Positions 3,961-28,006 of a stretch of 64,000 nucleotides of DNA are shown here, one piece after another; positions within the stretch are counted from its first letter, which is position 1, and the number at the start of each line of letters is the position of its first letter. The position numbers and the translations under genes are program-made. The stretch comes from Elsinoe ampelina (Eukaryota): NCBI GenBank assembly GCA_010093995.1, contig ML992503.1, positions 611,234 through 675,233 on the forward strand, written 5' to 3'. The notes below the pieces were generated by a model. That model did not search any database. It worked only from the letters and a program-made list of their open reading frames with translations, and had not been told where the DNA came from.

Positions 3961-4190
3961 AGCTACGGAGGGGAAGAGAGAAGTAGAAGTAGAAGAGTAG
4001 CAGTATAGGTAGCAATTCGGTGCAAGTGTTACTTACGATAGATAAGCCTTAGATCTTAGTTTACTTACGAGAGAGACATATTAGAATTGTACTTAGTTAT
4101 AATTAGTTAGCCTAAACTAATACTTGTAGAACTATAAAGTTTAACGCGCTAAACTTTATCTCCTCTTAGTTTTATTATATACTTATTATA

Positions 4191-4990: not shown

Positions 4991-5789
4991 TTTTGTTATT
5001 AGTAGCGCTTTGTTATAACTTTCTTACGTTAGTAATATACTTCTTTCTATATAGATTATATACCTATTACTTTAATCTCTCTCCTCTAACTAGTAAACAA
5101 AATCTCCTTATCTAATATGTATAAGTATACTATATATCTTTCTTTATTTCTTGTTATTTATCTTGTCTCCTGTCTACTATAAAGATATTAAGGTTATTAC
5201 TTTATACAATAATACTCTTTATTAAATAGTCCACTAGCTGTTTAGAGCATATATAACTTTATATATAGTACTAACATATAAGCGTTTAGTATAGTTAATT
5301 ACTTTAATACTAATTTTCTACAATAATTAGTACTTATAATATTCTCTAATAGCTGTGTTTTATTTGCTTACCTAATTTACGCCCTATAATATTTGTTAGT
5401 AGTAAACTAACTTATTTACTTTTAGTTCTAGTATCGACCTAATATTAGTAATTATTATATGTTACTATTAGCACGTACGAAATATAGACTTAGTTAACCT
5501 AGTTTACTTTTAGGTCGAGGCCTAAACTAGATCTTAGTTATAAGTATACTACTTACTTTAGTATACTATCTTAAATACAAATTTTATTATATTTAAGAAG
5601 TTACTACCTACTTTCTATATAGCATTTTAACATTATACTAGGTAGTAGATATTTATAATTACTGCTATTTACTCTATAGCGCTTAACTTACTACGCTTAG
5701 TTCCTAGCTATATAATCTTAACCCCTCTAACCTTATCTACCTTATATAACGCCTTTACTAGTAGACATTCTTATACTTATTAAATATAT

Positions 5790-7083: not shown

Positions 7084-7479
7084 TACCTGCGATAGCGACT
7101 AAACTACTAAAGGCAAGAGTAGTAATACTACTATATTTTATTTACTATTATGTTATTTATAAAACTATTTAGTTCTTAACTAATAAAGTTTTATTTAGCT
7201 CGTTCTACCCCTAAGAGGCTATAGCTCCTATAAATCCTACAATTTCTATTATTGTTATTAGAAGCAAACTTGCTTAATAGTTCTATAACTATAGCTAGAC
7301 GGATTTTAACCGACCTAGCGACTTAGTTCGGGGTATAGTCTTACTTTATATAGTTTTAGAAGAATATAGCTCCTTCTCCTCTACTAGAAGAACATAGCCT
7401 ATTTAGACTATAGTATATGCCGCCGAGGCGCTATCTATATTCCTACTACTTTAATAGCTTAAAGGATATTATATAAGCT

Positions 7480-9675
7480 ACTATATACCTAAGGCCGGCT
7501 ATCTATCTAGATAAATATAATCTCTCGGAGCTCTCTAATACCTCTCCTAAGTTCTACTTTGTTACTAGTGACTTTCTATAGCTCGCCTAGCACGCTATAA
7601 CGTATTAGAGTAAAGAGAGTAAGTCCGAGAAGATAATAACTTACTTCTACTAACACGAGATTAATATTAGTATTAAAAAAGTAATATGTTCTTAATATTA
7701 TTAATAATAAAAACGAAGTAATACTACTATAGATATAATAGACTAGAGCGTTTAATAATAAGTAAAACAAGTTAGCGGAATAAGATCTTATCCCCTATTA
7801 TAGTAGAAGTAATAGTATAAGTTTTAGTTCTATACTAAACTTAGAGTTAACTAAATTAAATAAGAATAGTATAGTGCTATAAAGGAGCGTATAGGCGTTA
7901 CTACTAATACAGTTATTAGGCTTTACTCTTGTATACTAGTGAGGTTTATATATAGCATACTCGAAAGTTAATAAAGAATTCCCGCTAACTATTATTAGTT
8001 CTAGCTACTACCTCCTAACAAATAGCAAAGACACTTTAGGTTAGGTTACGCCTCTTAACTAAGTATAAACTTAAGTTAGTTTAGTTAGCCTAAAACTAGA
8101 GATAAACTTATTTTATATTAGAGTAGATAAGTCCTTTAAGGGAATACTATAATGCCTAGCTATCTTATACTTCTTCTCGTTAGGCAATTACTACTTAGTA
8201 TTAGTATAGCTCTACTAACTATATATGTAGGTTTAGTATTAAGCTTAATATTTAATATAAGGTCGATTATACTAAGAGAAAGGAATTAGATACCTACTAC
8301 TTAACGAAGACAGCTTCGACATAGTAGAGCTAGTCTCTATCTATAGGCGGTAAAGACGTACCTATTACAAAGAATAAGAGAGGATAAACTAGACACGATT
8401 TAACTTAATATTACTATATAATATAATAAGAGGTAGCTCTCCGCCTATGTAAAAGTAATGTAAGAATAGTTAAAGCCTATTATAGCTCCCTTTTCGTAAA
8501 TATAATAGTCACTTCTTGTTTCTAGTTTAAAATCTTCATATTAGTCCCTATATAGATAGCTAGACTTCTATTTATTCCTCTTAATATATATCTTAACCTA
8601 ATTATAAAACATCTAGTAGCTACGCTTACTTTTATATCTTATTAGGTTTGAGATATTCCTAACTAGAACTCTAAAGTTTCGATCGAGAATAGATATCTTA
8701 TTTCTTTAGTAGTACTATATATATAAATTACTTCGCATATAGGGGAGTATACCTTAACTACAATTATAAAGACGCTATATAGGAGAGAGTAGCATAAGAT
8801 AATATTTATATTTAATAAGTAAAAGGAACCTAGAGGTAATTATACTAGATATTATTGTAAGCTTACTTTATTTACTCTACTACCTTACTAGTATAGGAAG
8901 AGTAATAATATCAACTAATATTATAGTAGAGGCTATAGACACTCCTTAGACTTTGTACCCCGAGCCGAAGTAGTAAATAAGCATATAGCTAGCGCTACGC
9001 TAGATTAGAAATATAGGGCCTTTATGTTATTATTCTTAAGATTATAGAACGGAAAGCCTATAGTTAGAAGACTAAGAGGTAGTAAGGGATTATTCGTATA
9101 TATAACTCTATAGCGCTAGCGGCAGCTACGGTAGTTAGTTTAACTTAGTTAGTCTAGTTCGGTCGTTACTAATAAGAGAGCTACATCTATAATAACTTAA
9201 GAGAATTCCGAATAGCTAAGCTATCGGGATTAGTAAGAGCACTAAAGTCGTCGTTATCGATTATAGAGAGAAGTCTATAGTAAGCTACGTAGGCATTATT
9301 AGAGTAGCTATATTAAAGTAAACCTACTTCGAGAAGGCTACACTAGTTAGTTTATAACTAAGAATAGTATATAGTTCTATAACAAGTAGAGTACTAGTAC
9401 TTCTACCTTAATAGTGTAACTTCGCTTAATACGAAGTTAGTATATAGATCTAATTATTATAGTAGGCTTCCGATAGTGCCTTAGAGAATATAACATTCGC
9501 TAGCGTAGATATAATAATAGCGTTTATGCTTAAGCTAACTATACTATTCTATCGGCCGAAGAAGTAGATTAACTATAGCTACGATACACTAACGATAATA
9601 TAGAAGGTTATATAAGATAATATAGCGAAGCGGACGAACTAAAAGCATAGTTGTTTAAACTAATAGAGGAGTAAT
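7480..9675 (+). pseudogene. Highly diverged paralog of the SNF2 helicase relic at 14.4-16.9 kb
   Basis: The C-terminus AFMLKLT.LFYRPKKQIN..IIQKVI (~9.52-9.61 kb) matches AFIIKLIALFYRPLEQLN..IIQKVI (~16.73-16.82 kb). The same intron donor GTTAGTTT lies at 9,134 vs 16,346. Scattered collinear matches occur at ~7.2-kb offset. Helicase motifs are not recognisable in this copy. Confidence 0.55.
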
Positions 9676-10150
9676 AGCAAATTATTAGTTTATCCTTATT
9701 AAGATCGGTTAAGGAAATACCTACAATTTTTACCTAAAAAGTACTAGTTTTAGTTTAGTAAACTAATCGACTACCCCTAACAGATTAACTATAGGCATAA
9801 ACGACCTAACGTTATATAGCTAAGGCGTCTTTATATACTACTATTGCTATTTTTTCGTAGAGGCTATTTATAACTAACTTATTATAATACTAGCGACAAG
9901 TTAAGATATAAGATAGTAAGAGCTATAAATCGTTTACTAGCTAAAATTATTGTACCTACGTAGTACTCTCTGTTTTATAATTGCTATAAAAGCCTCTACT
10001 AAGAACAATAGCGTAATAATAGCTAATTAAGTATAGTATTTAACATTGTCCTTAAGTAAGAAACGGCTAACAAACTCTATCGCTTAGATATATTAGAGTA
10101 AACTCTATCTCGACGTGTCTAGTACTATAGCATAGATACAATTTTAGCTT

Positions 10151-10663
10151 TAGTCTACTAACGCTATATAATAGCTTAGTTCTATTAGCTCTACTACGAA
10201 TTATAGTAAATAAGAACTAAACTAAGTAACAAGGTAAAAACGATAGCCTATAGCTAGTGTTAGGTGTCCTTCCCCCTTTGCCTACTATATAGTATAGTAT
10301 AGTAGATAATCCTCTTAGTCTCTTTACTAACCTCGACCCTCGACCTCTAGTATATAGAACGGATAGTAATAGTAATAGTAGGCTTAATAGCAACATACAT
10401 AAGAAAGAGAAGAGTATAGACGAGGTTATAATAGAAGACACGTACGAGAAAGAGTAAGTAATTATAGTAAGCACAACTAGTAGCACGTCTATAGAGCGGA
10501 GTACTAGGAGGTTATCCTTATATAGTAGAGCTATATCCGATCGTACTACGTTCGAGATAGTAACTAGTATACTAGCTAGTAGCGAGGAGTTAGTAATAGA
10601 TATAGTTTATTCTTAGTTTACATTAACTAATCTTATCTAGATCTCTCTAAGTCTATAATATAT
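10151..10663 (+). repeat. ~510-bp direct repeat, copy A (copy B at 17,371-17,883); likely 5' part of the transposase gene
   Basis: Near-identical to 17,371-17,883 (offset 7,220). The paralogous antisense ORFs 10217..10486 and 17449..17769 in the ORF track reflect it. Confidence 0.9.
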
Positions 10664-11047
10664 TCTTCGCCCTAAGCGATTAATAAGATATAGCTTAGCT
10701 AGAGACTCTTAGCTTAGCGCTCTAATGTTTAATAAAAGGCAAGCTACTAACTTAGATAGATAATTTTAATTCGAGTTAGATCGTCGTAGTAGAAGTGCCT
10801 TCTAGTAGGATATACTTGCTATAGACTACTAGCCTCTATATAATGTTCTAATAAATCTACTTCTACCTACGTAAGGGTACTAAAGATACATCTAAGTTAT
10901 ATATATAAAGGCTATAGTAGTCTAACTAATAGTAAAACAGTGTTTACTAGTAGGAAGCTTACTCGGCTTAAATTTAGTAGTATAAATCGTCGCTTTGCTC
11001 TATCTCTAGCATGTTATATATAGCAGTAGTAGAGGGCAGCTAGCAAG

Positions 11048-11236
11048 GGACGGCTAGTAGTTTATTACGTCGAACTAACAATTTCTTAGTTCTCTCTCTT
11101 AAAGTTTAAAGATAACTTAAAATTTTAACCTAACTATAGCCGGTAGAGGACAGCTAGTAGTTTATTACATCGAACTAATAATTTCTTAGTCTCCTCTCTC
11201 GAAGTTTAAGAATGATTTAAAATTTTAACCTAACTA
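11048..11236 (+). repeat. 100-bp tandem repeat, ~1.9 units
   Basis: GGAC(G/A)GCTAGTAGTTTATTAC..AAAATTTTAACCTAACTA starts at 11,048 and again at 11,148. Confidence 0.9.
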
Positions 11237-11363
11237 GATTAAGTACTCCTTAGAACTTAATTACGTAATACTATCTAATTATGTTCTTCTCTAAAGTTAA
11301 GTATTATATGTTTAGAGACTTATAATCTTTATAGCATTATAAACGCGTCGTAAACTCTATTTA

Positions 11364-12162
11364 TAGCGACACAACTATATTGTAGATATAATTTACTATA
11401 ACGCCTTAGTTTACACTCTTTGCTTACACCGACCTAAATATAGATATTAGTGTCCCTAGTATAACCTTTTCCCTCCTCTCTATCTAACCTCGATAATAGC
11501 TAGCTATCTATTATAGTAGATCTCCCGCCTAGTATACTATAATTATCTATTACTATATATATAATAGCGACTCTAACATTTACTCCTATATTGCTGTCGC
11601 TACTACTTCTAATAGTATCTTCTATACTAGCTATGTTATATTTATAGGATTAACTACTACTAGTACCTAGTAGTTACGCTAGAGCAAATCTATTATAGTA
11701 TACCTCTCTATCTTACCTACTACGCTACTATAGGCTTAAGGGTGTATAAGGAGACTCTAATACCTCTTTCTTTCTCCTCGCTACTACTACCCTCTATAGC
11801 TTCTTTTACACTAGCTATGTATTATTAGTAGGACTAGCTACTATCTCTACCTAGTAGCTATAACTAAGCAAATCTATTACGGAGCATCTCTTAATCTTAT
11901 AGATAGCGCTACTAGAGGTTCTAGCGTACGTAAAGAGAGTAAAGAAGCTAGTATCTACTAGGGATTATCTACCTTATAGTATAAGAATGTTAAGGGGAGA
12001 ATTATAGAGGAATAACTAGTATAACAAAGAGAAAGAGACGGAGGAATATTGCAGGCAAAGATACATCTACTACCTCCTACTAGATAGTAGCTTACTATAG
12101 AGAGCGTTATAGGCAGAGCTATACTAGTAGCGTTCTCTCTCGCTATTGCCTTCCTAGTAGAG
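11364..12162 (+). repeat. ~800-bp direct repeat, copy B
   Basis: Matches 4,191-4,990. Confidence 0.9.
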
Positions 12163-13026
12163 CTAGGCGAGGAATAAAGTATATTTATAATTATGTAGAA
12201 TGTACTGTTAACTGCCCGTTCCGTAGAATGTATAGCCTTTACTCTACTCTACTACTTAATTCTGTATATAGTAATTATAAAGTCTAGATAATTAGATAGT
12301 AGTATATTACTTTCTTTATTCCTTTACTAGTATCTATAAGCTATACTATACGCTATATATACTATGCCCTTTATTCCGCTATAGGCTACTAACTACCTTC
12401 TATTTATGTTCTATTACTATTATCCTTTATATACAAATACTAGTTTCGCTATTAAAATATTGTTTAATTATTTTACGTTAACTGCTACTATATTCCCTCT
12501 ATTTATTAGACTATTATCCCTTAAGATCTACCCTAAACACAACAATAGTATCCTTAGTGCGTATAGTATATAAAATAAAAGGTAACTAAGTATACGGACT
12601 ATAGTTACTCTTAGTTTAGTGTCTAAACTAAGTAATCTACTATTACATGTACGCTATATCTAGTATACTACTACGTGCTTAGTTTAGGGCCCGACCTAAG
12701 TTAACTAAATTTAGGTTACTTCTTTCCTTAATTACTTTAGTTTACCTTTTTTTATACTCTCTTATATATAAACAAATAACTTATATAGCTCTTTAGTATT
12801 TCTTTAACCTCTTTAACTTCTCTTTTAAGCGCTCTTTACTTAAATATCTCCTCTTTAGTTAAGTCTTAGTTAGGTATATATTACGAAGTGTATAGACCTA
12901 CTACGTTAATAAATCCTCTCCTTAATTCTTTTAAACTTATAAATACGTAACACCTTTATAGAATCTCTTCTTTAATATCTACTATACCTACTTAACCTAT
13001 TTACTAGATATTATTCTAAGCTTTAT

Positions 13027-13976
13027 NNNNNNNNNNNNNNNNNNNNNNNNNNNNNNNNNNNNNNNNNNNNNNNNNNNNNNNNNNNNNNNNNNNNNNNNNN
13101 NNNNNNNNNNNNNNNNNNNNNNNNNNNNNNNNNNNNNNNNNNNNNNNNNNNNNNNNNNNNNNNNNNNNNNNNNNNNNNNNNNNNNNNNNNNNNNNNNNNN
13201 NNNNNNNNNNNNNNNNNNNNNNNNNNNNNNNNNNNNNNNNNNNNNNNNNNNNNNNNNNNNNNNNNNNNNNNNNNNNNNNNNNNNNNNNNNNNNNNNNNNN
13301 NNNNNNNNNNNNNNNNNNNNNNNNNNNNNNNNNNNNNNNNNNNNNNNNNNNNNNNNNNNNNNNNNNNNNNNNNNNNNNNNNNNNNNNNNNNNNNNNNNNN
13401 NNNNNNNNNNNNNNNNNNNNNNNNNNNNNNNNNNNNNNNNNNNNNNNNNNNNNNNNNNNNNNNNNNNNNNNNNNNNNNNNNNNNNNNNNNNNNNNNNNNN
13501 NNNNNNNNNNNNNNNNNNNNNNNNNNNNNNNNNNNNNNNNNNNNNNNNNNNNNNNNNNNNNNNNNNNNNNNNNNNNNNNNNNNNNNNNNNNNNNNNNNNN
13601 NNNNNNNNNNNNNNNNNNNNNNNNNNNNNNNNNNNNNNNNNNNNNNNNNNNNNNNNNNNNNNNNNNNNNNNNNNNNNNNNNNNNNNNNNNNNNNNNNNNN
13701 NNNNNNNNNNNNNNNNNNNNNNNNNNNNNNNNNNNNNNNNNNNNNNNNNNNNNNNNNNNNNNNNNNNNNNNNNNNNNNNNNNNNNNNNNNNNNNNNNNNN
13801 NNNNNNNNNNNNNNNNNNNNNNNNNNNNNNNNNNNNNNNNNNNNNNNNNNNNNNNNNNNNNNNNNNNNNNNNNNNNNNNNNNNNNNNNNNNNNNNNNNNN
13901 NNNNNNNNNNNNNNNNNNNNNNNNNNNNNNNNNNNNNNNNNNNNNNNNNNNNNNNNNNNNNNNNNNNNNNNNNNNN
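13027..13976. other. Assembly gap (950 N)
   Basis: Run of n characters. Confidence 1.
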
Positions 13977-14399
13977 TTTAACACTTAGTTCGACTTAGGT
14001 GTATACTAATATACTTAGTTAACTCTCTTTAGTATTGTAATAGTTAGAAGCTATCGACTCTAGTCTAGGAGAAAGAGAAAGAGAAACCTCTAGCCCTTCT
14101 ATCTCTAGCTAAGCGCCTACTACTACGTAAACCTACTTCTAAGAAGTAACCTAGCTCTCTACTACCTAACGAGAATAATACTACTATCGACTATTGTCCT
14201 ACTTAAGTAATAGAAGACAAATACTATAAGCAATGCCGAGACAGCAATTAGTATCCCTTTATAATTATACCTAGCAAGGAGCAAGTAAGGTACTATATTC
14301 CGTTAGTCCCTAAGATACTATCTATACCTATTCTAGCGCTTATAACTTGTATATTTAATAAGACTCTTAGTAGCTTAGACTTTGTTAAACTTTATACTA

Positions 14400-16866
14400 T
14401 AAATAACAACAACGACGAGTAAACTAGTAATAATCTAGCTAACTAAAGCTTTATCCCTATAGGTACTAGAATTGATTACTAGTCCGAAGAGTTCTAGAAG
14501 AGAGTCTATAACTTTATAGGCTTTAAGAAAGACATCTACTTACTAAACGCTAGTATATAGTGTTTTAGTTAGAATAAGAAGTATTTAGTTAAGGTAGTAT
14601 AGATATACTTAGCGCTTATTACACTTAAGAAATACCTTAAAGGCTATCTAGTATTTATATTTACATATAAGATAGAATTTAGAAAGACTCTAATAGGACT
14701 CTTCTTTCTCTTACTAATTTAGAACTTAAATAAAAAGGTTATCTAGGATACTAACTATGCTACTATACTTAAGGACAAGTAGAGTAAGTACTAGAAGGTA
14801 AAGACACTAGTCGACGAGCTATAGCTAGATATTGCTTCTATAGATACTATTAGCTATAATCTAATTATTAGCGGATTAAATATAATAAAATAGTACGCGT
14901 AGAAGACACGGAAGTTTATACCTAATATAAAGGTCGTCCTATGCTAGGGAAGAATATTCTAAGCTATATAAGAACACAAGTATAGTAATATATATAATAT
15001 AGACACTTTAATTTGTAAAGAGAATCTGCCTATAGGCTACTACTAATAGAAGTCTTAGCTAATAGATAAGTCTAGTAAGCCTATTAATACTATTATAGTT
15101 TTATAACTAGTTAATATATATAAGCGACACCCCCGGACCTTATAGATAAATAATTAGTTCTTCTTTACTACTTATAATACTATAATCTACTACTTCCTTA
15201 GTAAGAACAATATAAATACTAAGGATTAGAACTTTATTCCTAAGGGACAAGAGAGAAAGCTAAGATCTACGCCTATAAACTAGGCCGCTATTATCTTTAA
15301 TAAGTTCTATTAGGTCACTAGCTAGAAGACGTAGACCTAGTATTGTCTAGGAATACTACCGGGGAGGCCTTTTATACTAGGTATAAGCGGGACACTATTT
15401 GTTAAGTACTTAAACATAGTAGCGTTCTTAATAGTAGCTATATATAAGAACTTTAGATTAGAAAAGCTTAATACGAATAGAAGTAAAATAGGAGAATTTA
15501 ATAAGAACTATATCTATAAATCTAAGTAGGAGCTAACTAAGGCTAAGAATAACAAATATTAAGTAATATCGAAGATAATACTAGACAAGACTTAATAAGC
15601 TATTACTAATAAGCTTAACTTCTAAATAGTATTAGACTATACCTTTGTAATTAATAAATAGTATAAGGCGAACAATAACTCTAGTAAGTTTAACAAAAAG
15701 AGAGGTATATAGTTTATAGAAGAGATTATAGCAATAGTTAGCAAATAGAGCGCTATTCTTACAAATATTCTTATTAAGATAAATGTAAACTACATCTAGA
15801 AACCTTTCGATACTACTTCTAGTCTACTAGCTATTAGAGTTCTACTATATTCTACCTTCGACCTAGAGATTACTATTAAGGATAAGTATCTTTATAGTCT
15901 TATAAATATATAGAAGAAGATTAAACGGGATATAGATAAGAGTATATAAGAGGTAATTAATAGGTAAAAGGATAAATCTAATAAGCCCGAAGTAATATTA
16001 GAGATAATCCTTAATAAGAAGACTAAGGAGTAAATACTAAGCCTAGTTACGCCGCTACTGCTTTTCTCTATATTTCTTACTCTTATAGATATATTCTAGA
16101 ACAATCCTATAGTCGTAGAAGAGTTTAGCGACTTTACTATTAAGTTTGCTTATAAAATTATACGTAACTTCTTAGAGATAGCGCTATAGTAGCATATAGA
16201 CAAGATCTATACTAGTCCTTAGATAAAGGTCCTTCGTAGTGTTATTTCTAAGATTATTAAGCAGAATATCTCCTATTCGAAGGAGCTAAAGAGGTAAGTA
16301 ATTGTCTATACGTTTACACTGTTAGTGCTAGTAGTTACTACGATAGTTAGTTTAGTCTATTTAGTCTATTTAGGTTATTACTAACAAGGGCATAGTATCT
16401 AAAATAGCTTAAGAAGCACCTAGACAGTAAAGTAATTAGGATCGATAAGGATGCTAATATAGTTGTTATCTACTATAGAATAATATCTATACCTACCTAT
16501 ATAGACATTGTTAATATAGCTATATCTAACAATACGTTTATTAAACCTAATAGGCCGGAAGGCTTAAGGATCTTAATTGCCTAGGGTAAAGCTATTAAGA
16601 CTAGTCTTAATCTAAACTGCTTCGACACTATAATCTTACTCGACATAGCGTTAGTATTATAATCTGTCCTTTAGTGTCTAGCTTAGGTCCGTAGAAACAT
16701 TAAGTCTTAGAAAGCTAACTACATAGAGGCGTTTATAATAAAGCTAATAGCTCTATTCTATAGGCCTCTAGAATAGCTTAATAGTAGATAGAGTAGGCTA
16801 TTAATAATATAGAAGGTTATCTACGAGGAAATAGAGAAGTAGAGAGTAAAGATCTAGAAACTTTAA
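14400..16866 (+). pseudogene. RIP-inactivated SNF2/SWI2-family (SF2) helicase/ATPase
   Basis: In one frame: motif I FTYKIEFRKT = FA(H)EMGFGKT (14,660-14,689); motif II IIFNKFY* = IIFDEFHQ (15,290-15,313); motif III ISGTLF = MSGTPF (15,383-15,400); motif IV RQVIVYTF (~16.3 kb). A 50-nt intron at 16,346-16,395 (GTTAGT..CTAAC..TAG) shifts exactly into the frame carrying motif V TSLNL = TGLNL and motif VI *CLA*VRR = QCLA(R)VRR. Start position approximate. Confidence 0.8.
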
Positions 16867-17370
16867 TAAGCTATAGCGAAGAAGAACACAATTATTATAG
16901 ATAATAATTAAGATTACTAGATAATAGTCTAACTATATTACCTAAAAATACAATTCTTTAGTTTAGCGAACTAATTTAGTTCCCTATACATGTTAAACTA
17001 TCTTTTAGGTTACCTAATATAATATAGCATCTAAACGTTTCTTACTTTCTACTATCGCTAAAATTTAGCCGGCTAACTCTAACTACGAATTTAGATCTTA
17101 AGCGATAAACACAGATATACTAAGGCAAATTAGTAAATGCTCGGCCTATAGGAAGATTATATAATCTAGTAGAGGCCTTGTCTAACATCTACTATATTAC
17201 TAGAGGAGAGAGCTACTAATAAGTAATATAGCGTAAGTCTTACTAGAGTAATATAGCAATAGATATCTACGTAGAGACGACGCTAGTAATAATCCCTACT
17301 TGTTTAATAAGGGAGAGCGCTTACTGTCTAATAAAGGCTAACGAGGTAGCATTACTAGTAATACACGATA

Positions 17371-17883
17371 TAGTCTACTAACGCCGAATAACTCGCTAGT
17401 CTACTTTACTCCGCTACGAATAACAGTAACTAAGAATCGAACTAAACACTAGAGTAGAAACGAAAGTCTATAGCTAGTAGAGGGTGTTCTTCCCCCTTTG
17501 TCTACTATATAGTATAGTATAGTAGACAATCCTCTTAGTCTCTTTACTAACCTTAACTCTCGACCTCTAGCACGTAGAATAGATAGTAATAGTAATAGTA
17601 GACTCGATAGTAACATATACGAGGAAGAGGAGAGTATAGACAAGGTTATAATAGGAGACATATACGAGAAAGAGTAAGTAATTATAGCAAGTATAACTAG
17701 TAGCACGTCTATAGGGCGGAGTACTAGGAGGTTGTCCTTATCTAGTAGAGCTATATCTAATTGTACCACGTTTAAGATAGCTACTAGTATACCGGCTAGT
17801 AGCGAAGAGTTAGTTATAGATATAGTTTATCCTTAGTTTACATTAACTAATCTTGTCTAGATCTCTCTAAGTCTATAATATAT
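17371..17883 (+). repeat. ~510-bp direct repeat, copy B
   Basis: Matches 10,151-10,663. Confidence 0.9.
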
Positions 17884-17899
17884 ATACTAACACTAATAA

Positions 17900-20654
17900 T
17901 AAACTAAATTACAATTAGTTAGGCAAGACTTAACTAAAGGAAGCCTTTATTAGCGGCATAGACGTAGGTCTTACCTAGTAGCTTATAAAGGAGAAACTTA
18001 GTAGAGCTATAATTACGTAATTACTTAAAGACCTACGTATATAACCTCTAGTAGAGAGCCTTAGTTAGCAAACTACGAATAAACTAATAGAGAAGATAGA
18101 GAATTTAGATACAAGCGGGGGCATTAATAGCTAGTAGACCTTGAGCTTTATACTAAACACTAATCGTAGGCCTAAAAGACATACGTTCTAGCATCTAGAT
18201 ATTCTTATAGCAATACGCTTCTTGCTTAGCTATTATAGTTTTATAGTAGACATAGACTATAGCCTATATAGAGTCTTTATAGAAGCTATTAAGAGTAAGC
18301 TACTACAACAAGTATATACTAAAATAGCAAGCGGCGACTAGTAGTAGGACATATAAAAGCGACTTAGGATACTAGGGGCTACTATTATTCCATTAATTAT
18401 CGTAAGTAATTAGACCTAGGTAATAAACTATTAAGGAGATCTTATAGTATATACTATCTATCTATTATTAGGCAACCTAAAGGCGGAAGTATATAATAGC
18501 AACTACTAGCTAGAGTAGTTACTAATTAGCTTACTTTCTATTATTAAAGATAGTAGTAATATTATTAAGGAGAAGACCTACTACGCTTATATAAAGAAAA
18601 TCTTTAACACTGTTATTAATTACTACTCGAGAGAGAGTAAAATAATCTTCTATACGAATAGAAAGAGGCAGAGATACTTCTCTATACTTGCTACTATACC
18701 TACAAATTACGCCGAATAGGTTACTATAACCGGTATAAAGTTACTATATTATTATATAAGTTGCCTAATTAGTAAGGACGAAAGAGAGGACCTAGTAGTT
18801 ACTACGCTGTTCTAAACTTACTACTCTACGTAGCGATAATAGTGCTTATAGAGAGAAGTACACAAGAGTTAGTAGCGAAGCAAGAAGATAGATATAAGCT
18901 CTTAGGTTTATATAGTTAGTTACTTTACGTAGGATCTTCCGTATACTAATATTTACTACGCGATAGTACTAGATATTCTATACTAACTTCTTAAAGGCGT
19001 TTTAATACATGTCTTACACTAGACTTAAAAATTGCTCTAGGATTTAATGCCTATATAGAGATTACTACGGTATATAAAGGCTAGAGAGACTATATAGCGA
19101 ATAGGCTACTAGCGCTCGGTAAAGAAGATTATACTTAATATTATTAACAAGCGTTTCGATAGTATACTAGTATTTCCTAGCATCCGACACTTCTTGCACT
19201 ACTTAGCTATTAAGTAATAGACAGGTTAAGAGTAGAAGAGTATTATACGCTAGATGCTTCTAGTATTTATACTACTACTCGAGGAGGTTAAGGTACCTTA
19301 AGCTATTAAGTTTATATATACACTAGTTAACTTTATATTACTAGTGAACTATAAGACCTATAACGACAATATACTCTAGTATATTAACCTTGCGCTCTTT
19401 AGGATAAACAAGTACAAAGAAACCTTCTAGGCCTATTATAGCGACAGGAAAGAAGAAAGCAACTTTAACTTTCCGAAATAGTACTTAATAATACATTTTT
19501 TAAAGGCTATCTATAATTTTAGAGTAGTTACTAGCCTTAATTCTAATTATTTAAAGCATAATTATATATGCTTTATTAAGGACGCCTTTAAACTTATAAA
19601 TAAGAAAGCTAAATAGAAAGACTAGGTTACTACTTATAATACTAAACTAGTAAACATATTAGTAATATTTAATAACCCCTCGAAGTTAGTTAGGCTATTA
19701 GCTACTAAACTAATTAAGATCTAGAGTACGCTAGTTAGCGTAAGCGATATAGTAAATGTTACTTCTTAGTTCGGCTAGCCTAGTGCTAAGAGGAGAGCTA
19801 TATAGCGTATAGTAAGAGAACTAGAGGCGCTTATTAACATGCTACCTAGGCTATTACTATAGCAAGTAATAGCGGTATTTGTCCGCGAGGCTCGTTAAGA
19901 TATAGCTAACATAGGCTCTAACTCGAGAACTAAATACTTTAATTAGTTTAATACTAAACTAGATCCTAATAGACTCGAACTAGATTCTTCCTAGGTAAGT
20001 AACCTTCGCGTTAAGTTCTACTATTCTTTAAAGTATAGGAAACTATCCGACTATAATCCTAATAATTCTAATATAGACGAATAAGACTTTATCTAGTACA
20101 TAACTAAATAGTAGAGAATACGTAGTAATAAGAGGCAAGACTAGCTCTAGGTATAAGAATAGACAACGAACAACGAAGGCACTAATAGAGCATTACCTAA
20201 TAGCCTATAAGGTAAGTTACTAGCTTGTATTATGTTTATAATAACTATAGAGGATAGCTTCTAGTCTAGTAGATTAGGCCGGCATTAACGCCTATACTAC
20301 ATAGGAGCGCTAGTAGATCTATATTAGCCTACTCGGCCGGATAGAGTAGCTAATCGAGAGTATAGTATAACACTAATTAAGCCTTAGACAAATCGACGTG
20401 TACGAGCTAGACAGAACGCTCTTACTAGTAGACGTATCTACTCTACCTTGTAAATCTACTATAGTATCTACGTCGTACTAGTAAATAAAATAAGGCTATA
20501 TAGCTAGATATACATTAATAATATAGCCGACTTTAACATATATAATATACTATAGAATAAGTTATAGAAGTCTAAATAGCTCTACCTAGCTAAGACTTTA
20601 AAACAAGAGAGATTAAGATCTCTAGGCGTAGTTAGTAAGTATAGTAGGCATTAA
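17900..20654 (+). mobile_element. RIP-inactivated Plavaka-family (CMC/CACTA-related) transposase
   Basis: One unbroken frame carries Plavaka-type motifs after de-RIP: SGDWWWDMQ (18,330), GATIIPLII.SDQT (18,375), YL.LGNL, CADGKRQRCF.IL....DYAEQ (18,651), DILHQLLKG (18,972), KRF..IP.FPGIRHF..QWTG.EQK, NFNFPK.H (19,461), KDAF..TNKK, YINN..DFD.YN (20,511). Confidence 0.85.
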
Positions 20655-20799
20655 CGAAGCTAGAGTACTTCTTTCGTAGCTAGAACGATTATCTCTTATA
20701 TTAACAGCCTAACGCTTAGGTATACTTAGGTTAACTACTAGACTATGTTAGGTAGGCGAGTTATAATAACTTCTGTAGGTATTACTCTAACTAGTTAGT

Positions 20800-21262
20800 T
20801 TACACCTATATATTATTAGGTTAGTCCCTAAACTATATAGAGTTTATAGCCTAAGGTGCCTTATATAGTTTTTACGCTAAAGAGTTAGTCTATTCCTTTA
20901 CTAATTATAATAGCTTAGGAAATTATAGTAAGGCGTTATAGAAGTTAGTCTTTAAGATGCTTAAGACATACTCTAAGTATTTAGTAACAGCGGTAAAAGG
21001 CTTAGGTTAGTAAGTTATTTTTAGGTTAGTTTTACTAATAGAGTTAGTAGTCTAAGAGGAAAGTTTATTCTCTATAATAAGTTTACTAATAAGACTCTAA
21101 TATAGATAATAGCGCTTTACTCTATTCGCTATTATATTGTAGGGATCTACTCGATGCTACTAGAGTAGTTACTAAGGACTTATTCCTTTCTATCTAACAG
21201 ATAAGATCTATAATAACACTAGCTTAGAAGACCCGCTAGGGAATATTCTTATTAATCTCTAT
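20800..21262 (-). pseudogene. RIP-degraded gene relic, paralogous at its N-terminus to the relic ending at 22,841
   Basis: De-RIP N-terminus is MEIDENIPQRVFQAGVIMDLI. Bases 21,202-21,262 match 22,781-22,841. Confidence 0.35.
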
Positions 21263-21949
21263 ATATATACTATACGCGGGAAACAAGTCGAGGAAGAAGC
21301 TACCCTTTAGTACGGTAAGTAGCCTCTTCCTTATCCTTTAAAGTCTCCTCTATATCTACGTAGGTCGTAAGTATTTCCTTATAAGATTATTAGTGTATAA
21401 TATATATACGACAAATCCTGTCTATAAGATTATATACTAGATTATTCTATACGTGCTATTACTACAACTACTACTTAGTAGTAGTAATAGTAGGGCGGCG
21501 GGATATAGTAGGAAAAAGTGTTATTATACCTACCTCCGAGAGAGAAATACTCTCTTTCTTCCCTATACTTTCCTCCTTACTCTCCGCTATAGTAAGGTAT
21601 ACTATAACTAAAGCTACTACTACTACTCTCTCTATAACTACTATTGCTTATATATAGCTACAACTATAAGTTATTACCGGAAGCTTAGTACGCGTTAGAG
21701 TAACCTTATCTTTAATATATAGTAATAAAGTGTTATAATCTTAACCCGGACACTGCCTCTATTACCTCTCTAACGACTACTATAACTAGCGCTAAGAGCT
21801 AGTAAGGTAAGAAGCGTACTACCCCTACCTTTGCTAGTGTCTATAGCTATGCTAGCATTAAGCTCGGCAAGGTAGAGGAGAAGGGTAAGAAGCAGAAGGA
21901 GCCTCTTATTATTACTAATTACCTCCTTACTAATAACCTTATAGATAGA

Positions 21950-22841
21950 TAGTTAGGGTAGATCTTAAACTTCCTAGAAAGAGTATTTACTTCTCCGCTA
22001 TAACTGCCTTTAAGCTATCGTTTAGACTACTATATCCTTAGTACTATCTCTAGGGCTGCTTAGATACTATACTAATGTCCGTTAGACCTTACTTTTCTAA
22101 GTAGTCTTTCGTAGCTCTAGAATTATCCTTCTAGTAGATATACTATTTCGTGTTAGTAGACGAGGGATTAGCTTAGCCTAAACTAAATGTCTATTACATT
22201 TCCTATACCTGTCTATGTTAGTGTTAATCTTCTTAGAATAGGCTATAGCCTTGCTACTATAGCCACTATTAATGTAGTATATCTAGCTTCTATCGTTATT
22301 CTCTTCCTACGTTACTAACGACTTTTAAGTACTAGAACAGGTCTATAGGTATTTATACTCGATGTTGTAACTGTGCTTAGCTATAATAATTAAGTCCTTC
22401 TTAGGAAAAGCTTTCTCGTATCTATAAGCCTAAGTTATAAATGCCTCTCTATAAGCTTGTTTTACATTGTTAACGATATAGGCTGCTAGATAGTAGAACT
22501 CGTAGGCTATAGGGCAATAGAGGCGCTTTTCGTTAGTATTAACCTTTATCGCTAGCTATATAGTTATGTAAAAGTGCTTATCTTTAGAGACATCTAACAC
22601 CTTAATAGACAACTAAGTAGAGACAATAAAATAGAGTTAGAATAAGTATATATTAGTTTAGGGTTTTATGTTACAAGCTAGAGAATAAGGCGTATAATGT
22701 CTACTTTCCTATTATAGCAAAAGCACTTCTATACTAAGCTCCGATAATATAGAGTATATACTTCTCCTCTATCTAGCGAATAAGATCTATAATAATACTA
22801 GCTTAGAGGGCCCTCTCTAGAAGATGCTTGTTAATTTCTAT
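21950..22841 (-). pseudogene. RIP-degraded gene relic, product unidentified
   Basis: De-RIP N-terminus is MEIDKHLPERALQAGIIMDLI, with a protein-like frame downstream. Confidence 0.35.
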
Positions 22842-22888
22842 ATCTATTCTAGTTATAGCAAGTAGAGCGTTTGTCTAATCTAAGGCAC

Positions 22889-22959
22889 GTACGGTGCGTT
22901 TAACTAAAATTAGGTAGGTACGGTATGTTTAACTAAATTTAGGTAGGTATAGTGTATTT
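22889..22959 (+). repeat. 29-bp tandem repeat, ~2.5 units
   Basis: GTACGGTGCGTTTAACTAAAATTAGGTAG / GTACGGTATGTTTAACTAAATTTAGGTAG / GTATAGTGTATTT. Confidence 0.85.
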
Positions 22960-23479
22960 GTAGCGACCTAACGTAGTTAAACTTAGTTTAATGTAGAGAA
23001 ACCTAATATTCTAACTCTCTACGCTTAGGACTTTCGTAACGTAATATAGTAAAGAATATTATTAGTAATAGAAGACACTAGCTTACTATATAAACTATCT
23101 AGTAGCTTATTATTATAAAGCTTATAATAAGTCTCTCTTTGTTAAGTAGTAATATTGTTACTAGCAGTTATTAAGATACTATTAATAGTAGTTATAAAGA
23201 TACTACTATAGACGAGGTAGATAACCTACTTAAGCTACCTTCTTAAGAGAGTAACTTTATTCTAAGCAATTACAAGGAGGACAATAACATCGATAACAAC
23301 GAGCCTCTAGTAAAGTATATAAGATTATCTATAAGAGTATAGAATAGAACTATTTATAAATACGATAACCGAGTGTATAAGATGCTATAATTAGAGACTA
23401 TAATTATTACTGTCCTTCCTGATTTTAAATTCTATATAATGTCTTATATTAGAGAATTAAGAGAAGCTTCTATTACTTA

Positions 23480-23638
23480 TGTAATACCTACCTACGTATA
23501 GGCGTAGGTTATAGTAGATAGAGTATTTAGGTACGCGAAATACCTACTACCTAACCCCTACTATACCTACTACTAAGAATACTCTACCTAACCTATACCT
23601 ACTATGCTAAGAAATAATACTCTACTCTACTCGCAGTG
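23480..23638 (+). mobile_element. Candidate right end of a CACTA-like element: subterminal TACCTAC repeats ending in CAGTG
   Basis: Clustered TACCTA(C) motifs are followed by CAGTG at 23,634-23,638, the reverse complement of the CACTG terminus. It is un-RIPped in a CA/TG-depleted context, and copia-like coding sequence follows immediately. Confidence 0.55.
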
Positions 23639-25986
23639 GAATACCTACTACCTACTAACTACCCTAAGTTAGAGTAATCTAGATTAAGGGCTAAGCCTAT
23701 CTTAGTAGCTAGATAAGAGTTACCCTATTATACTAGATTAGTTACTACCTCTATTAGACTAATTAGATAAGGCTATTCTAGATCTAAACCCGGCTTAGAT
23801 CTAGGAATCTTTACTAAATAAATAGTTCTTTAATACTCTAGCCTTACTACTATCTATAGTAGTATAGCTATCTCCTCTACTAATAGGAGAAGATAAAGCT
23901 AAAGGAGATAAGATAGAAGTTTAGACTAAAGGGGTAGTTAAAGCTTAGCCTAAGTAACCTCCTTAAAGAATTGCTATAAGGTTAGCTAACCTTCTTCCTA
24001 AATATATCCTTATAATAAGAAGAATAAGAAAACTAAGAAGGCAAGTATATATTACTACCCTTATATAAACTAATAAGGCTCCTAGATATTACTAAGCCTT
24101 TAATACTTATCTATTAATAATACTAACTTAGCCTAAGCTAGAATTAAGAGACAATCTTCTACTACTACTAGCTAATATTAGAGAACTTAAGGCTTATTCT
24201 TATAAGAAGTAATTTTAAGAGGCTATAAAGGTTAAATTACTTACTTTACACTTAAAATATATATAGACTATTATACTAGTAGCTTAAGCTACTAGTAAGC
24301 CTATCTCTTTAATATAGGTATTTACCTATAAAGTTAATAACAAAGGAGAGATTATAAAGCATAAAGTAAAAGTCTATATAAGGAGTAATCTCTAATTAAT
24401 AGAATCTAAGACTTATATAGTAACTCTAGCAGCTAAGATCTTTAGAATGCTTATAGCATTACTTACTTATAAAGACATAAAGGCTATCTAGATAGATGTT
24501 ATTAATGCTTATATTAATAGTCCTATTAATAAGACTATCTACTACACTATCCCTACTAGATTTAAGCTAGTAGTAGAGGATCTTATAAAGGACTATCCTA
24601 GTATTACTCTATTAGAGGCAATTCTATTGCTTAATAAGGCACTATATAGCCTAAAGTAAGCCCTAGCTCTCTAGTATACTAAATTTACTACTACTCTAAA
24701 GAGTATTAAATTTACTTAAGCCTCTAAAGCTCTATACCTCTAGATAATACTTAAAGTAATAATCTTCTTCTTTGTAAATAATATTACTATTATATATCTT
24801 AAGAAATATAAGGAGAAAGCTAATACTATTATTATAGCTCTCTATACTAAATATAAGATAAAGGTACTTAGAGATCTAAGCTAGTTTCTAGCTATCTAAG
24901 TTATAAGGGATAGACTAATAAAGAGACTCTAGCTTAGCTAAGCCTAGTATATATAATAGATATATAGTAAGTTTATTATAGAACTAATAAGGCTAGTGTT
25001 AATACTACTACTAATTAAGATACTTTAACCTTATAAAGGCTAAGTATTACTATAAGAGATCTACCTATATTAGTAAAAGATAAAATCTATTAACTTTATA
25101 GTAGTTATTATAAGGCCTAATATAGCCTTTGCTACTTCTAGATTGTTAAAGCATCTAACAAATCTATTACTAACTTACTAGAGAATAGCAAATAGAGTAA
25201 TCTAGTATCTCTATAAAACTAAAGATCTAGCTTTTACCTTTAATAGCTTAATACTACCTCTAATCTTCTAAGCCTTATTAGATACTAGCTTTAGTAGTTA
25301 CCCTTTAAGGAAGAGCCTTTAAGGCTATCTATTTAAGATGTTTTAAGGCTTAATTAACTAGAAGACTACTAAGTAGCTAATAGTTATAACCTTAAGTATA
25401 GAAGCTAAATTACTTACTCTTATAGAGACTACTAAGTAAGCTATATAGTAGAGGAGGCTAATAGCCTTTATCTATCCTCTTAAACATGTTAGTATTTAAT
25501 ATAATAATTAGTAAACTATTAGTCTTATTACTACTCTAATTAAGAAGCTAAATACATGTCTTTACTATATTAATATTTATTATTATTAGCTAAAACAAGA
25601 GATTAATTAAGCTAGAGATCTATCTAGCCCTATCTTAGTAATATAGACACTATTAGTAGACACCTTAGCTAATAGATTAACTAAATTATTACTACCTAGA
25701 AGGTATAAGGCCTTCTTATAATAGCTATCCCTCGAGTTAGTAGTCTACTAACTAGCTATTACAGAGTTATAGCTACTTAGTAAAGGGGTATATTAACCGA
25801 GGTATAAGCTAGAGCGCTAAGAAGGACCCTAATTTAGTTTATCCCCTAGTAGAACTAAACACTTATCTACTACTCTACTAATTTATAATTAAATTAGATA
25901 GTTATTGTCTTAATCTGTTGTTACTTAGGAGTTCTATTGATTTATCTATCTCTTAGTTTATTAGGTTAAGTATTTATGTAGTTATA
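23639..25986 (+). mobile_element. RIP-inactivated Ty1/copia LTR retrotransposon, 3' half (linker-RT-RNaseH-PPT-3'LTR)
   Basis: One frame after de-RIP: KPISL.WVFTYK (24,297), HKA.VCVRGDLQ, Q.DVINAYINS, KALYGLKQAP.LWY, FVDD (24,771), RPDIAFA, SDASF, SSTEAELL, DNQQTI, HIDIHHHWL, LADGLTK (25,665). Confidence 0.9.
25791..25986 (+). repeat. Putative 3' LTR of the copia element (~196 bp)
   Basis: Follows the polypurine tract AAAGGGG(T)A at 25,782-25,790. Starts TATT (RIPped TGTT) and ends ..GTTATA (RIPped ..CA) exactly where the RIP signature stops. Confidence 0.65.
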
Positions 25987-26183
25987 ATCCACCTCAGTTT
26001 GGTGGATCAGGCAGTAATCAATCCTTTTTCCTCCCCCACACAAGTCAACAAGGACACACCGTCACGTGAAGTCCCTCCCACCGGAACCTTTCCGCAGGCA
26101 TATCAAAAATTCATCCTCACACCATCTTCACCTCCCCTCACTACAAACCACTTCACATCACCGCACTCCGCCCAACGATAACC

Positions 26184-27224
26184 ATGGCGCCCTCCCCTTC
26201 CAAACCCGACCTCCTCGCCCTCCAAGACCTCACCAACACCTCCCTCCTCCTCCTCACGCAATACCTCACAACCCTCACCACCCCCTCCGCCCCCACATCA
26301 TCCTCAATCCCCGATCCACCCAACCCCCTCCAGGTCCTCCGCGACTCCGCCCTCCTCCTCAAATCACACACCACCAAACTCTCCCTCCTCCTCCTCAACG
26401 CGCCCTTCACCCCGTCCGCAGTGACCAAAGTCCTCCGCGAGATAACAGGCACATGTCTCCCCGCCATGATGAGCGCGGTGGAGCTCGCCGATCCGGACGT
26501 ATGGGGACGTCTACTACGCGGGGAGATCGTGGCGAGAGTCGCGCGGGTGATTTGGGAGATGAAGGTGTGTCTTGAGGAGGTGAAGGGCGTTGCGCTGGAC
26601 AGCGAGGGGGCGGAGAAGCGGGAGGGGAACAAGAGGGATACCTTGTCTAGTACAGGAGTGGTGTGGGAGGCTTGCGATGCGGTGGTGGAGCTGGAGGGGT
26701 TGGATGTGGGTGGGGTTGCGTTGAAGAGGGCGAAGGAGTGGCAGGCTCTGGTCAAGGATGCGATTGAGGAGTTGAGGGAGTGGGGGGAGAATGAAGAGGA
26801 GGACGATGAGGATGAGGGTGATGATGGTGAGGAGGAGGACATATTTGGGGCGGGCAGCTTGCCTAGGGATAGGGTGGAGTTGAGGGAGCTGTTGGCTGAG
26901 GGACTTGGGAAGGTGAGGAAGGTGGAGATTTTGTACACGGCATTGATCAAGAGGAGGGTCAAGACATTCACGAAGGAGAAGGCGAGGATAAAGCCTCATG
27001 TGCTGGTCATGGACGACTTGATGGATCACCTGAAGCAATTACCCGAGCTAGTGGATGAGCTCGCGAGTGGGTTTTACGATCTGGACGAGGAGGCTGTGAA
27101 GGGCCAAATCAAAGCGGTGGTGGACGAAGCAAAAGCGACAATCACTCTGGTCAAGAAAGATTGGCAAGGCAAAGAGGATGAATTCACAACATGGAGTACG
27201 AAGTGGCTGGAGGTGGTCAAATAA
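26184..27224 (+). CDS. GCIP / cyclin-D1-binding protein 1-like helical protein (346 aa)
   Basis: Intronless ORF. LLKSHTTKLSLLL..PFTPSA and TGVVWEACD..VKDAIEELREW plus an acidic linker resemble fungal GCIP-domain proteins. Confidence 0.7.
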   Translation: MAPSPSKPDLLALQDLTNTSLLLLTQYLTTLTTPSAPTSSSIPDPPNPLQVLRDSALLLKSHTTKLSLLLLNAPFTPSAVTKVLREITGTCLPAMMSAVELADPDVWGRLLRGEIVARVARVIWEMKVCLEEVKGVALDSEGAEKREGNKRDTLSSTGVVWEACDAVVELEGLDVGGVALKRAKEWQALVKDAIEELREWGENEEEDDEDEGDDGEEEDIFGAGSLPRDRVELRELLAEGLGKVRKVEILYTALIKRRVKTFTKEKARIKPHVLVMDDLMDHLKQLPELVDELASGFYDLDEEAVKGQIKAVVDEAKATITLVKKDWQGKEDEFTTWSTKWLEVVK

Positions 27225-27328
27225 ATTGCATTGAAGGGTATGATCCAAAATGATATCCCGAGGCGCCCCCTGAACCGGGCTGTACCCTACTGAATATGAA
27301 CAATCGCCGAGAGAAGAATGTTTGTCGC

Positions 27329-27892
27329 TTAAAGAGCGAGGACGGCAGCCATGGCGAGGCCGAGGACGGGACCGCCGACCCGGACGACACCAGCGCCACC
27401 AGTAGCGGCGGAGGAGGCAGCGGCGGCAGCGGAAGAGGTGGCTGAGGAGGCCCTGGCAGAGCCGGAGGACATGGCAGCAGAGGCGGAGGCAGAAGCGGAG
27501 GCGGCAGCAGAGGAGCCAGAAGCGGAGCCAGAGGCAGCTGATGAGTCTCCGGAGGAAGAGCCTGAAGTGCCGGCAGCTACGGCGGCGGCGCAGACCTTGG
27601 TCACAGCAGCGTTGATGTCTTGGAGCCGTTAGTAGTCGTCTGGGGCTAGAAGAAGGTGCAGCTTACCAGCAACATCACCGGTTGTGCAGGTAGACTTGAG
27701 CAGGCAAGAGGTGACCTCCTGCTTGATGATGTCCTTGCCAGTCGTGCACTGGCAGAGGTAGTCGGTAGCGGAACAGGTGGTCTTTCCGATGGCCTCAGCG
27801 AAACAGCTCTGGGCACAAGCTGGGATGTCTGGGGACTGGGCGGCGACAAGGGCGGCCGAAGCGGCGAAGAGGGCGAGGGTCTTGAACTGCAT
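27329..27892 (-). CDS. CFEM-domain, Ser/Ala-rich, GPI-anchored cell-surface protein
   Basis: Signal peptide MQFKTLALFAASAALVAAQ and an 8-Cys CFEM pattern (PACAQSC..C...DYLCQC..C....C..C). A 48-nt intron at 27,619-27,666 joins to a Ser/Ala stalk and a hydrophobic C-terminus GLAMAAVLAL. Confidence 0.9.
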
Positions 27893-28006
27893 GGTTGCTA
27901 ATGTGGAATGCGAATTGCTTTTGGAAAGATGCTGATGAAGAATGCGATTGAAGGGAATGCGGCAGATGAGGATGGAGAAGAAAAGGTATTCATGGGTGGA
28001 TTAAGG

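Follow-up and report, generated by a model that had tools for sequence, protein, structure and literature searches.

Organization of the locus

The DNA analysed here, referred to as the window, is a stretch of 64,000 nucleotides from Elsinoe ampelina (contig ML992503.1 of assembly GCA_010093995.1, positions 611,234 to 675,233 of the forward strand), and all coordinates below are window positions. Its first part, from 1 to 25,990, is an AT-rich block (GC ~0.25-0.34) mutated by repeat-induced point mutation (RIP), with TpA/ApT at 1.7-2.3 and (CpA+TpG)/(ApC+GpT) at 0.17-0.38. Two gene relics lie in this block on the plus strand. The upstream relic, which opens at the edge of a run of N at 13,977 and extends to 16,848, resembles an intron-bearing gene for an SNF2-family ATPase, while the downstream relic, ~1.1 kb further on, derives from a Plavaka-type DDE transposase with its core at 17,943-19,613. 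The region from at least 13,977 to ~22,870 is probably one RIP-inactivated copy of a multicopy, cut-and-paste DNA transposon of the Plavaka lineage in an ascomycete, in which the SNF2-family gene was carried upstream of the transposase and on the same strand.

The Plavaka transposase relic

A Pfam scan of the six frames of 13,977-23,641, read through with X at stop codons, matched a single family, PF18759, at 18,159-19,016 on the plus strand. The match scores 78.2 bits, where the cut-off is 26.3, with an E of 8.8e-22, and covers profile positions 32-322 of 325. A word-indexed protein search returned one relative, P0001 (E 9e-8), which displays the domains PF18759 and PF20722. With P0001 as the query, Plavaka proteins of ~1,000 amino acids were collected from Agaricomycetes (basidiomycetes), and 60 of them gave a Plavaka profile of 1,005 nodes. 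Profiles were aligned to the DNA through a model of RIP, in which every codon is represented by the posterior of its pre-RIP amino acid and the changes C>T and G>A have a probability of 0.82 in CpA/TpG context and 0.25 elsewhere. The resulting soft residues are aligned to the profile, and colinear local alignments from any of the three phases are chained at a fixed link cost.

Under this model the Plavaka profile scores 212 bits on 16,900-21,600, against 50 bits for the reversed profile. The strong segments, which correspond to profile nodes 199-719, map to 17,943-19,613 and are all in one reading phase, and the same frame can be traced to ~20,650. No other Plavaka signal is present in 1-25,990, where the 23 remaining scores of regions, strands and decoys range from 39.7 to 58.4. 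The C-terminal third of the profile, corresponding to DUF6830 (PF20722), was not recovered, its nodes giving noise-level segments only, and in this the relic departs from the reference Plavaka proteins. The columns of the catalytic D, D and E read N, N and K, with Y..C and Y..H in place of the C..C and H..H blocks; all these differences are RIP-type transitions, those of the catalytic residues being G>A. The frame is interrupted by 74 in-frame stops in 916 codons, which are all TAA or TAG with no TGA. A splice-site reconstruction joining 17,674 to ~17,919 gave no consistent frame and was dropped. The data support a Plavaka-lineage element killed by RIP, and the transposase frame that an initial annotation of this DNA had placed at 17.9-20.65 kb is confirmed.

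The SNF2-type gene relic

Stop-codon density upstream of the transposase displays the same three-frame pattern as in the transposase, one phase shifted, from the gap edge to ~16.1 kb and again at 16.98-17.88 kb, which suggests that this DNA was coding on the plus strand. The putative SNF2-type gene starts with an exon-like stretch at 13,979-16,293, in the phase of nt 13,979 and open at the N gap, which was delimited by the RIP-aware profile and by stop periodicity. An intron-like stretch at 16,294-16,395 follows, with GTAAGT at 16,294, TACTAAC at ~16,379 and AG at 16,394-16,395 read directly from the sequence. The initial annotation had claimed an intron in the helicase gene, and a candidate for it is seen here, with predicted splice sites. 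The C-terminal, Helicase_C-like lobe occupies 16,396-16,848, with motif V and the start of motif VI at 16,558-16,695 and a weaker continuation at 16,786-16,848. A change of phase falls between motifs IV and V. Since the helicase motifs beyond the intron-like stretch follow the phase of nt 13,978, splicing may in fact have used the AG at 16,426-16,427 as its acceptor; alternatively, a 1-nt frameshift may have arisen in this copy. The first exon contains 53 in-frame stops in 771 codons and the C-terminal lobe 10 in 151, again all TAA or TAG, with no TGA. Both genes are dead, because they carry in-frame stops and the catalytic D/D/E of the transposase reads N/N/K, and they are broken mainly by RIP-type transitions, as had been proposed.

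Standard searches with the literal translation of the upstream relic were empty. Pfam matched neither SNF2 nor any helicase family in the six frames of 13,977-23,641 at E<=1, phmmer of 13,979-17,578 against 1.84 billion representatives gave no match (with the C-terminal lobe out of frame in the query), a PDB sequence search with the read-through of the SNF2 region gave none at E<=10, and neither did a word-indexed protein search with 13,979-16,303 at the same threshold. BLASTP against Escherichia coli RapA was also tried (best E 4.5) and set aside, RapA being too divergent as a reference. An SNF2 profile was instead derived from prokaryotic SNF2 genes located through a back-translated motif I pattern, which returned 120 stretches; 53 prokaryotic open reading frames extending 430 residues or more beyond the motif gave 513 nodes, and the consensus contains the canonical SNF2 blocks.

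With RIP modelled, the plus strand of 13,977-17,400 scores 67.4 bits against this profile at a link cost of 10, compared with 24.6-40.5 bits in 31 controls. For these, the real and the reversed profile were each applied to the reverse strand of the target and to both strands of seven further RIP-mutated stretches of 3.4 kb, and the target was in addition scored with the reversed profile. At a link cost of 7 the score is 103.6 against 57.4-79.5 in the controls, and three other settings of the RIP parameters give 59.8 against 28.5, 74.5 against 36.5 and 76.3 against 39.9. None of 100 codon shuffles of the target reaches 67.4 (mean 34.6, standard deviation 4.2, maximum 45.6), which places the observed score ~8 standard deviations above them. 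The two profiles are specific, with the Plavaka profile scoring 48.2 on the SNF2 region and the SNF2 profile 33.4 on the transposase region. In a plain translation without the RIP model the SNF2 chain scores 44.3 against 40.5 for the reversed profile, and the standard tools failed because the signal vanishes in this way. The assignment of the upstream relic to the SNF2 type is thus supported, and is significant only when RIP is modelled.

The predicted motifs I, Ia, II, III, IV and V follow one another in the order of the SNF2 profile. Motif I, at 14,657-14,692, reads IFTYKIEFRKTL and aligns with the consensus lLADEMGLGKTv, which it matches at 10 of 12 positions once C>T and G>A changes are reversed. 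Motif Ia lies at 14,861-15,019. Motif II, at 15,275-15,337, reads ..IIFNKFY.. against the consensus ..ilDEaq.., with the DExH-like N-K-F-Y at 15,299-15,310, and motif III, at 15,377-15,400, reads LGISGTLF against laLTGTPi. The spacing between motifs II and III is 27 codons, equal to the 27 nodes of the profile, while motifs I and Ia are ~40 codons, and Ia and II ~75 codons, further apart than the profile has them. Motifs III and IV are separated by 219 codons, in which no RING-like pairs of Cys or Tyr are seen by eye. Motif IV, at 16,058-16,105, with the peptide LLFSIFLTLIDIF, is weak (12.5 bits). The best local match of the region is motif V leading into VI at 16,558-16,695 (EGLRILIAXGKAIKTSLNLNCFDTIILLD...; phase of nt 13,978, nodes 407-452, 23.8-25.1 bits), where the Q..R.R part of motif VI is aligned and no GQ is recovered in frame. 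The wording of motifs IV (FSxF), V (..GxGLNL..D.VI..D) and VI (QAxxRxxRxGQ) was checked against the profile consensus. Of the superfamily 2/SNF2 motifs I to VI that the initial annotation had read in order on this strand, I to V, and also Ia, are recovered, and motif VI is not convincingly so. An assignment to an SNF2 subfamily by eye, from an LAH.MGLGKT-like motif I and a DE[F/L/S]H motif II, proved unreliable and was abandoned.

Repetition of the two genes

The repetition of the region was assessed from the contigs of two public sequencing runs (X1 and X2) of one sample of the same organism, placed on 13,977-28,000 at a likeness of at least 80%; the contigs measure ~150-260 nt and their summed depth is not a copy number. 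Unique GC-rich DNA has a summed depth of ~180 in X1 and 186-200 in X2. The SNF2 region reaches 10.4-12.2k (X1) and 12.6-15.7k (X2) and the transposase 11.4-12.6k (X1) and 13.5-15.5k (X2), with a bump of 13.7-16k (X1) over 17,253-18,188. Further downstream, 20,529-22,868 has a depth of 7.7-11k (X1) and 11.2-15k (X2), and the depth drops to 4.7k (X1) and 5.9k (X2) at 22,869-23,336. The SNF2 part, the transposase and ~2.2 kb of downstream DNA consequently form one plateau, whose summed depth exceeds that of the adjoining unique DNA by a factor of ~60-75. The contigs differ from the window by 817 transitions and 33 transversions (X1). Alternative letters are carried by 11-13 distinct contigs at five sites of the SNF2 part and by 15-20 at three sites of the transposase part.

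The depth plateau is flat across both genes, which indicates that the SNF2 region is as repeated as the transposase. This equal repetition argues for a gene that travelled with the element, and against a single-copy host SNF2 gene damaged by RIP leaking from a neighbouring transposon. RIP can leak into unique DNA flanking repeats. The SNF2 region, however, shares the summed depth of the transposase and has many variant contigs, and the RIP indices are uniform across it, so that leakage is extremely improbable as an explanation.

A second, partial and diverged copy of 16,191-17,883 is found upstream, at 8,980-10,663 on the plus strand. It comprises the 3' part of the SNF2 region followed by the inter-gene block, in the same order and with the same spacing, and shows 64.5% blastn identity over 1,704 nt and 87.6%, 83.5% and 96.9% identity in blocks compared as purines and pyrimidines. 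The homology ends at 10,663 (equivalent to 17,883), just before the transposase frame, and 8,000-10,700 has no SNF2 profile signal, scoring 31.0 where the reversed profile scores 41.2. The inter-gene block itself, 513 bp at 17,371-17,883 with its second copy at 10,151-10,663, differs between the copies almost exclusively by transitions, with a purine/pyrimidine identity of 96.9% and 0-2 transversions per 150 nt over 17,500-17,799. It may hold the transposase promoter, a first exon and part of an intron. The flanks of this block are far more diverged between the copies, with ~25% transversions. Over the block the contig depth is also a little higher, at 13.7-16k. The scarcity of transversions in it might stem from a recent event of gene conversion or from separate amplification of a sub-element.

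Ends of the element and its 3' part

The 3' part of the plateau, at 20,651-22,868, was delimited by depth. It contains a direct repeat of ~105 bp (21,183-21,287 and 22,762-22,866), the second copy of which ends where the contig depth drops. No Pfam family matches any frame of 20.6-23.6 kb, and a comparison of 20.6-23.7 kb with itself, as purines and pyrimidines and at permissive settings, yielded this repeat and otherwise only noise. The two paralogous minus-strand relics that had been described downstream of the transposase are therefore reduced to one ~105-bp direct repeat without a detectable protein family, and the further cargo genes proposed there have no detectable domain.

The initial annotation had also bounded the element by CACTG..CAGTG ends, which are not upheld. 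Position 13,977, its left end, is the edge of the N run and not a terminus. The proposed right terminus, the CAGTG pentamer at 23,634-23,638 on the plus strand, is one of two CAGTG in 25,990 nt, lies ~770 nt past the depth drop at ~22,869 and is not validated; its position 23,634 is read as T by 3 contigs of X1 and 5 of X2. No partner terminus or target-site duplication was found for it and a purine/pyrimidine search recovered no inverted repeat between the flanks, the left end being masked by the N run. Depth brackets the right end to ~22.87-23.8 kb. Contig joints, such as that from 23,041 to 24,005, were not used, as each is supported by one contig with sides <30 nt.

The RIP-mutated block and the neighbouring DNA

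The AT-rich block is interrupted by 950 N at 13,027-13,976. The run covers the very place into which the SNF2 frame would extend upstream, and masks both the 5' end of the gene and the left end of the element. At its right side the block ends at a very sharp isochore boundary, 25,990-26,070, where the RIP indices change from 0.22 to 1.24 within ~100 nt; beyond 26 kb (CpA+TpG)/(ApC+GpT) is 1.2-1.7 and GC is ~0.5-0.6. Contigs of unique depth start at 26,024 and a gene for a GCIP-domain protein at ~26,070. Leakage of RIP into this adjoining gene is accordingly slight or absent.

Other repeats are present in the block. A Ty1/Copia-type relic at 23,805-25,990 abuts the GC-rich DNA, with a reverse transcriptase match (RVT_2, E 5.8e-11) at 24,291-24,974 on the plus strand. 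Its summed contig depth of 51-77k (X1), ~300-400 times that of unique DNA, exceeds that of the Plavaka family several-fold, which suggests a repeat of far higher abundance. Another RIP-mutated repeat is found as two direct copies at 4,178-4,990 and 11,351-12,162, with 87% identity (99% as purines and pyrimidines), and includes tandem units of ~185 bp (4,333-4,582 and 4,516-4,766; 11,569-11,754 and 11,753-11,938); no protein family was detected in it. A tandem duplication of 100 bp lies at 11,036-11,236. The Pfam scan of the six frames of 1-13,026 gave no match, and no other transposase or recombinase signal.

The GC-rich DNA at 26,070-62,233 carries ordinary genes of a fungus, largely of the housekeeping kind, which encode GCIP-like, ISN1, Med17, Nse1 and RCC1-repeat proteins, an FMN-dependent dehydrogenase, a metallophosphoesterase, a P450 and a THI20-like kinase/TENA protein. 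The nearest clusters of Med17 are ascomycete, which is a lead only. Five long open reading frames without a Pfam match lie in the same part, at 37,038-39,974, 40,844-42,028, 42,024-43,145, 44,943-45,926 and 46,382-47,986.

Comparison with known systems

The transposase relic displays the organization of the Plavaka group, which is related to CMCT/EnSpm and represented by PF18759, with a DDE core and with the C(2)C and H..H blocks, here Y..C and Y..H, in the places expected from the published description (PMC12730594). The termini described in the same source are TGT..ACA for PlavakaA and CATCA..TGATG for PlavakaB, with target-site duplications of 2-3 bp. The transposase clade is related to that of CACTA/EnSpm, of which a pair of CACTA-type terminal inverted repeats and a 3-bp target-site duplication were not found here, a single CAGTG pentamer being all that is seen. 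The families reconstructed in PMC12730594 are from Agaricomycotina, in contrast with the RIP-active ascomycete host of the present element.

Extra genes have been described in other Plavaka elements. Agaricales PlavakaB elements carry TET/JBP genes (PMC12730594) and giant red-algal Plavaka elements carry the accessory genes PAG1-3 (bioRxiv 10.1101/2025.02.11.637652), and the present element would resemble both in being large and in bearing at least one extra gene that likely acts on chromatin or DNA. It differs in the kind of passenger, which is an SNF2-type ATPase here and a TET/JBP dioxygenase, a methyltransferase or a ParB-like protein in the elements those sources describe. DNA transposons with a gene for a superfamily 1 or 2 helicase are also known, namely Helitron, AcademH and KolobokH (PMC10799480). 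Their helicases are Pif1-like or DEAD/Helicase_C and go with other transposase families, and none of them is known to combine an SNF2 protein with a Plavaka/EnSpm-type DDE transposase. An SNF2 passenger has not so far been reported for the Plavaka group, a full-text literature search that did not cover Repbase or the paper naming Plavaka (Iyer et al. 2014) having found no report that pairs Plavaka or EnSpm with SNF2.

X3X3R8 of Parastagonospora (Stagonospora) nodorum is the closest precedent, and can be compared by description only (Hane & Oliver 2010; PMC3017866). It is a 26-kb RIP-affected repeat that was interpreted as an endogenous gene cluster, and it contains Rad5/SNF2-like helicase genes, a Rad6-like gene, ORFs with no assigned function and a tandem, diverged and incomplete second unit; genes named for it include SNOG_09186, SNOG_09189, SNOG_01370, SNOG_01374 and SNOG_02344. 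Like it, the present locus is a multicopy repeat that RIP has degraded in a filamentous ascomycete, with an SNF2-like helicase and a diverged incomplete second unit. In contrast, a Plavaka transposase adjoins the helicase here, while the description of X3X3R8 combines Rad5-like helicases with a Rad6-like E2 and reports no transposase.

The pairing was also sought elsewhere. None of 80 metagenomic Plavaka loci (549 kb in total, 28 with at least 3 kb of upstream flank, scanned without a eukaryotic positive control) has an SNF2 profile match, and none of 120 long Plavaka proteins among the matches listed contains PF00176 or PF00271. The pairing is not general. The claim that the helicase was a regular component of a multicopy element is probable for this family, where the SNF2 region appears as repeated as the transposase, and does not extend to the other Plavaka transposases examined.

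Interpretation and alternative explanations

A single mobile unit formed by the SNF2 gene and the transposase is the best-supported reading of the locus and likely correct, although it is not proven. The evidence for it includes the flat plateau of depth, the shared strand and the second partial copy, in which the order of SNF2 3' part and inter-gene block is kept. Several observations weigh against it. The literal translation fails every standard search, so that the SNF2 call rests on a purpose-written, controlled method, and the recovery of motif VI is unconvincing. No contig is long enough to join the two genes physically in another copy, and contig depth is not copy number. The second copy in the window breaks off before the transposase frame and has no SNF2 profile signal. 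No SNF2 gene lies beside the other Plavaka transposases examined. Lastly, neither termini nor target-site duplications were found, the N run hiding the left end.

The same observations can be read as two repeats lying side by side, an SNF2-bearing repeat that is not a transposon, such as a duplicated gene cluster of the X3X3R8 kind, and a Plavaka element inserted beside or within it, their like depth being due to co-amplification or coincidence. The likeness to X3X3R8, including the diverged partial second unit upstream, the 80 Plavaka loci without SNF2 and the missing element ends all fit this explanation. Against it stand a depth that is flat over the gene junction with no step down, and two genes that share strand and orientation. 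The apparent lack of RING-like pairs between motifs III and IV is a misfit to a Rad5-type protein, and a RIP-aware scan of both strands of 1-25,990 for a Rad6/UBC relic gave no more than 10.3 bits, a weak test made with an E2 active-site motif. Two adjacent repeats are on balance unlikely. A larger mobile or segmentally duplicated unit of at least 23 kb, extending left past the N gap, with both genes as cargo or residents and something other than the Plavaka transposase as the mover, would explain why the plateau extends right up to the gap edge at 13,977 and why related sequence occurs 7 kb upstream, and the 26 kb of X3X3R8 is a precedent for such a size (PMC3017866). The six frames of 1-13,026 contain no other transposase or recombinase signal, however, and the block has no second Plavaka relic; this explanation is improbable.

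A chance resemblance to SNF2 in low-complexity, RIP-mutated DNA would account for the empty standard searches and for the small margin of the plain translation over the reversed profile. It is very unlikely in view of a score that, with RIP modelled, stands clear of the shuffles and above all 31 controls, of six motif blocks in profile order with a motif I that is nearly restored by reversal of RIP, and of the recovery of the known transposase by the same method.

Under the preferred reading of a single transposon, the transposase would have cut and pasted the element and the SNF2 protein would have acted as an accessory DNA translocase. Its most likely role would be to keep the chromatin of the element or of its target sites accessible, thereby countering heterochromatin silencing. 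TET/JBP dioxygenases in the Plavaka elements of basidiomycetes, and the accessory genes in those of red algae, would be parallels. With lower likelihood, the protein would have promoted recombinational repair of the excision gap, which would raise the copy number too. The family would have reached tens of copies, after which RIP would have turned C:G into T:A throughout.

Biological implications

Accessory genes are rare in DNA transposons, and the known ones (TET/JBP, VANC, SET, methylase, ParB-oxygenase) all manipulate the host silencing machinery. If the single-transposon reading is true, a transposon-borne SNF2 remodeller would add an ATP-driven chromatin motor to this list, and would be a concrete candidate to seek in unmutated form in related fungi. 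The locus also shows that RIP can hide a well-known domain wholly from Pfam and phmmer, and that a simple RIP-aware likelihood model recovers it. More tentatively, and with somewhat less confidence than doubt, a Plavaka lineage in RIP-competent ascomycetes may carry an SNF2-family translocase as a regular accessory gene. In that case, 'helicase repeats' degraded by RIP, such as X3X3R8, may be transposons of the same kind. The remodeller would then act against silencing or as a helper in repair, and would make up a third class of accessory factor next to TET/JBP and the red-algal methylase/ParB-oxygenase.

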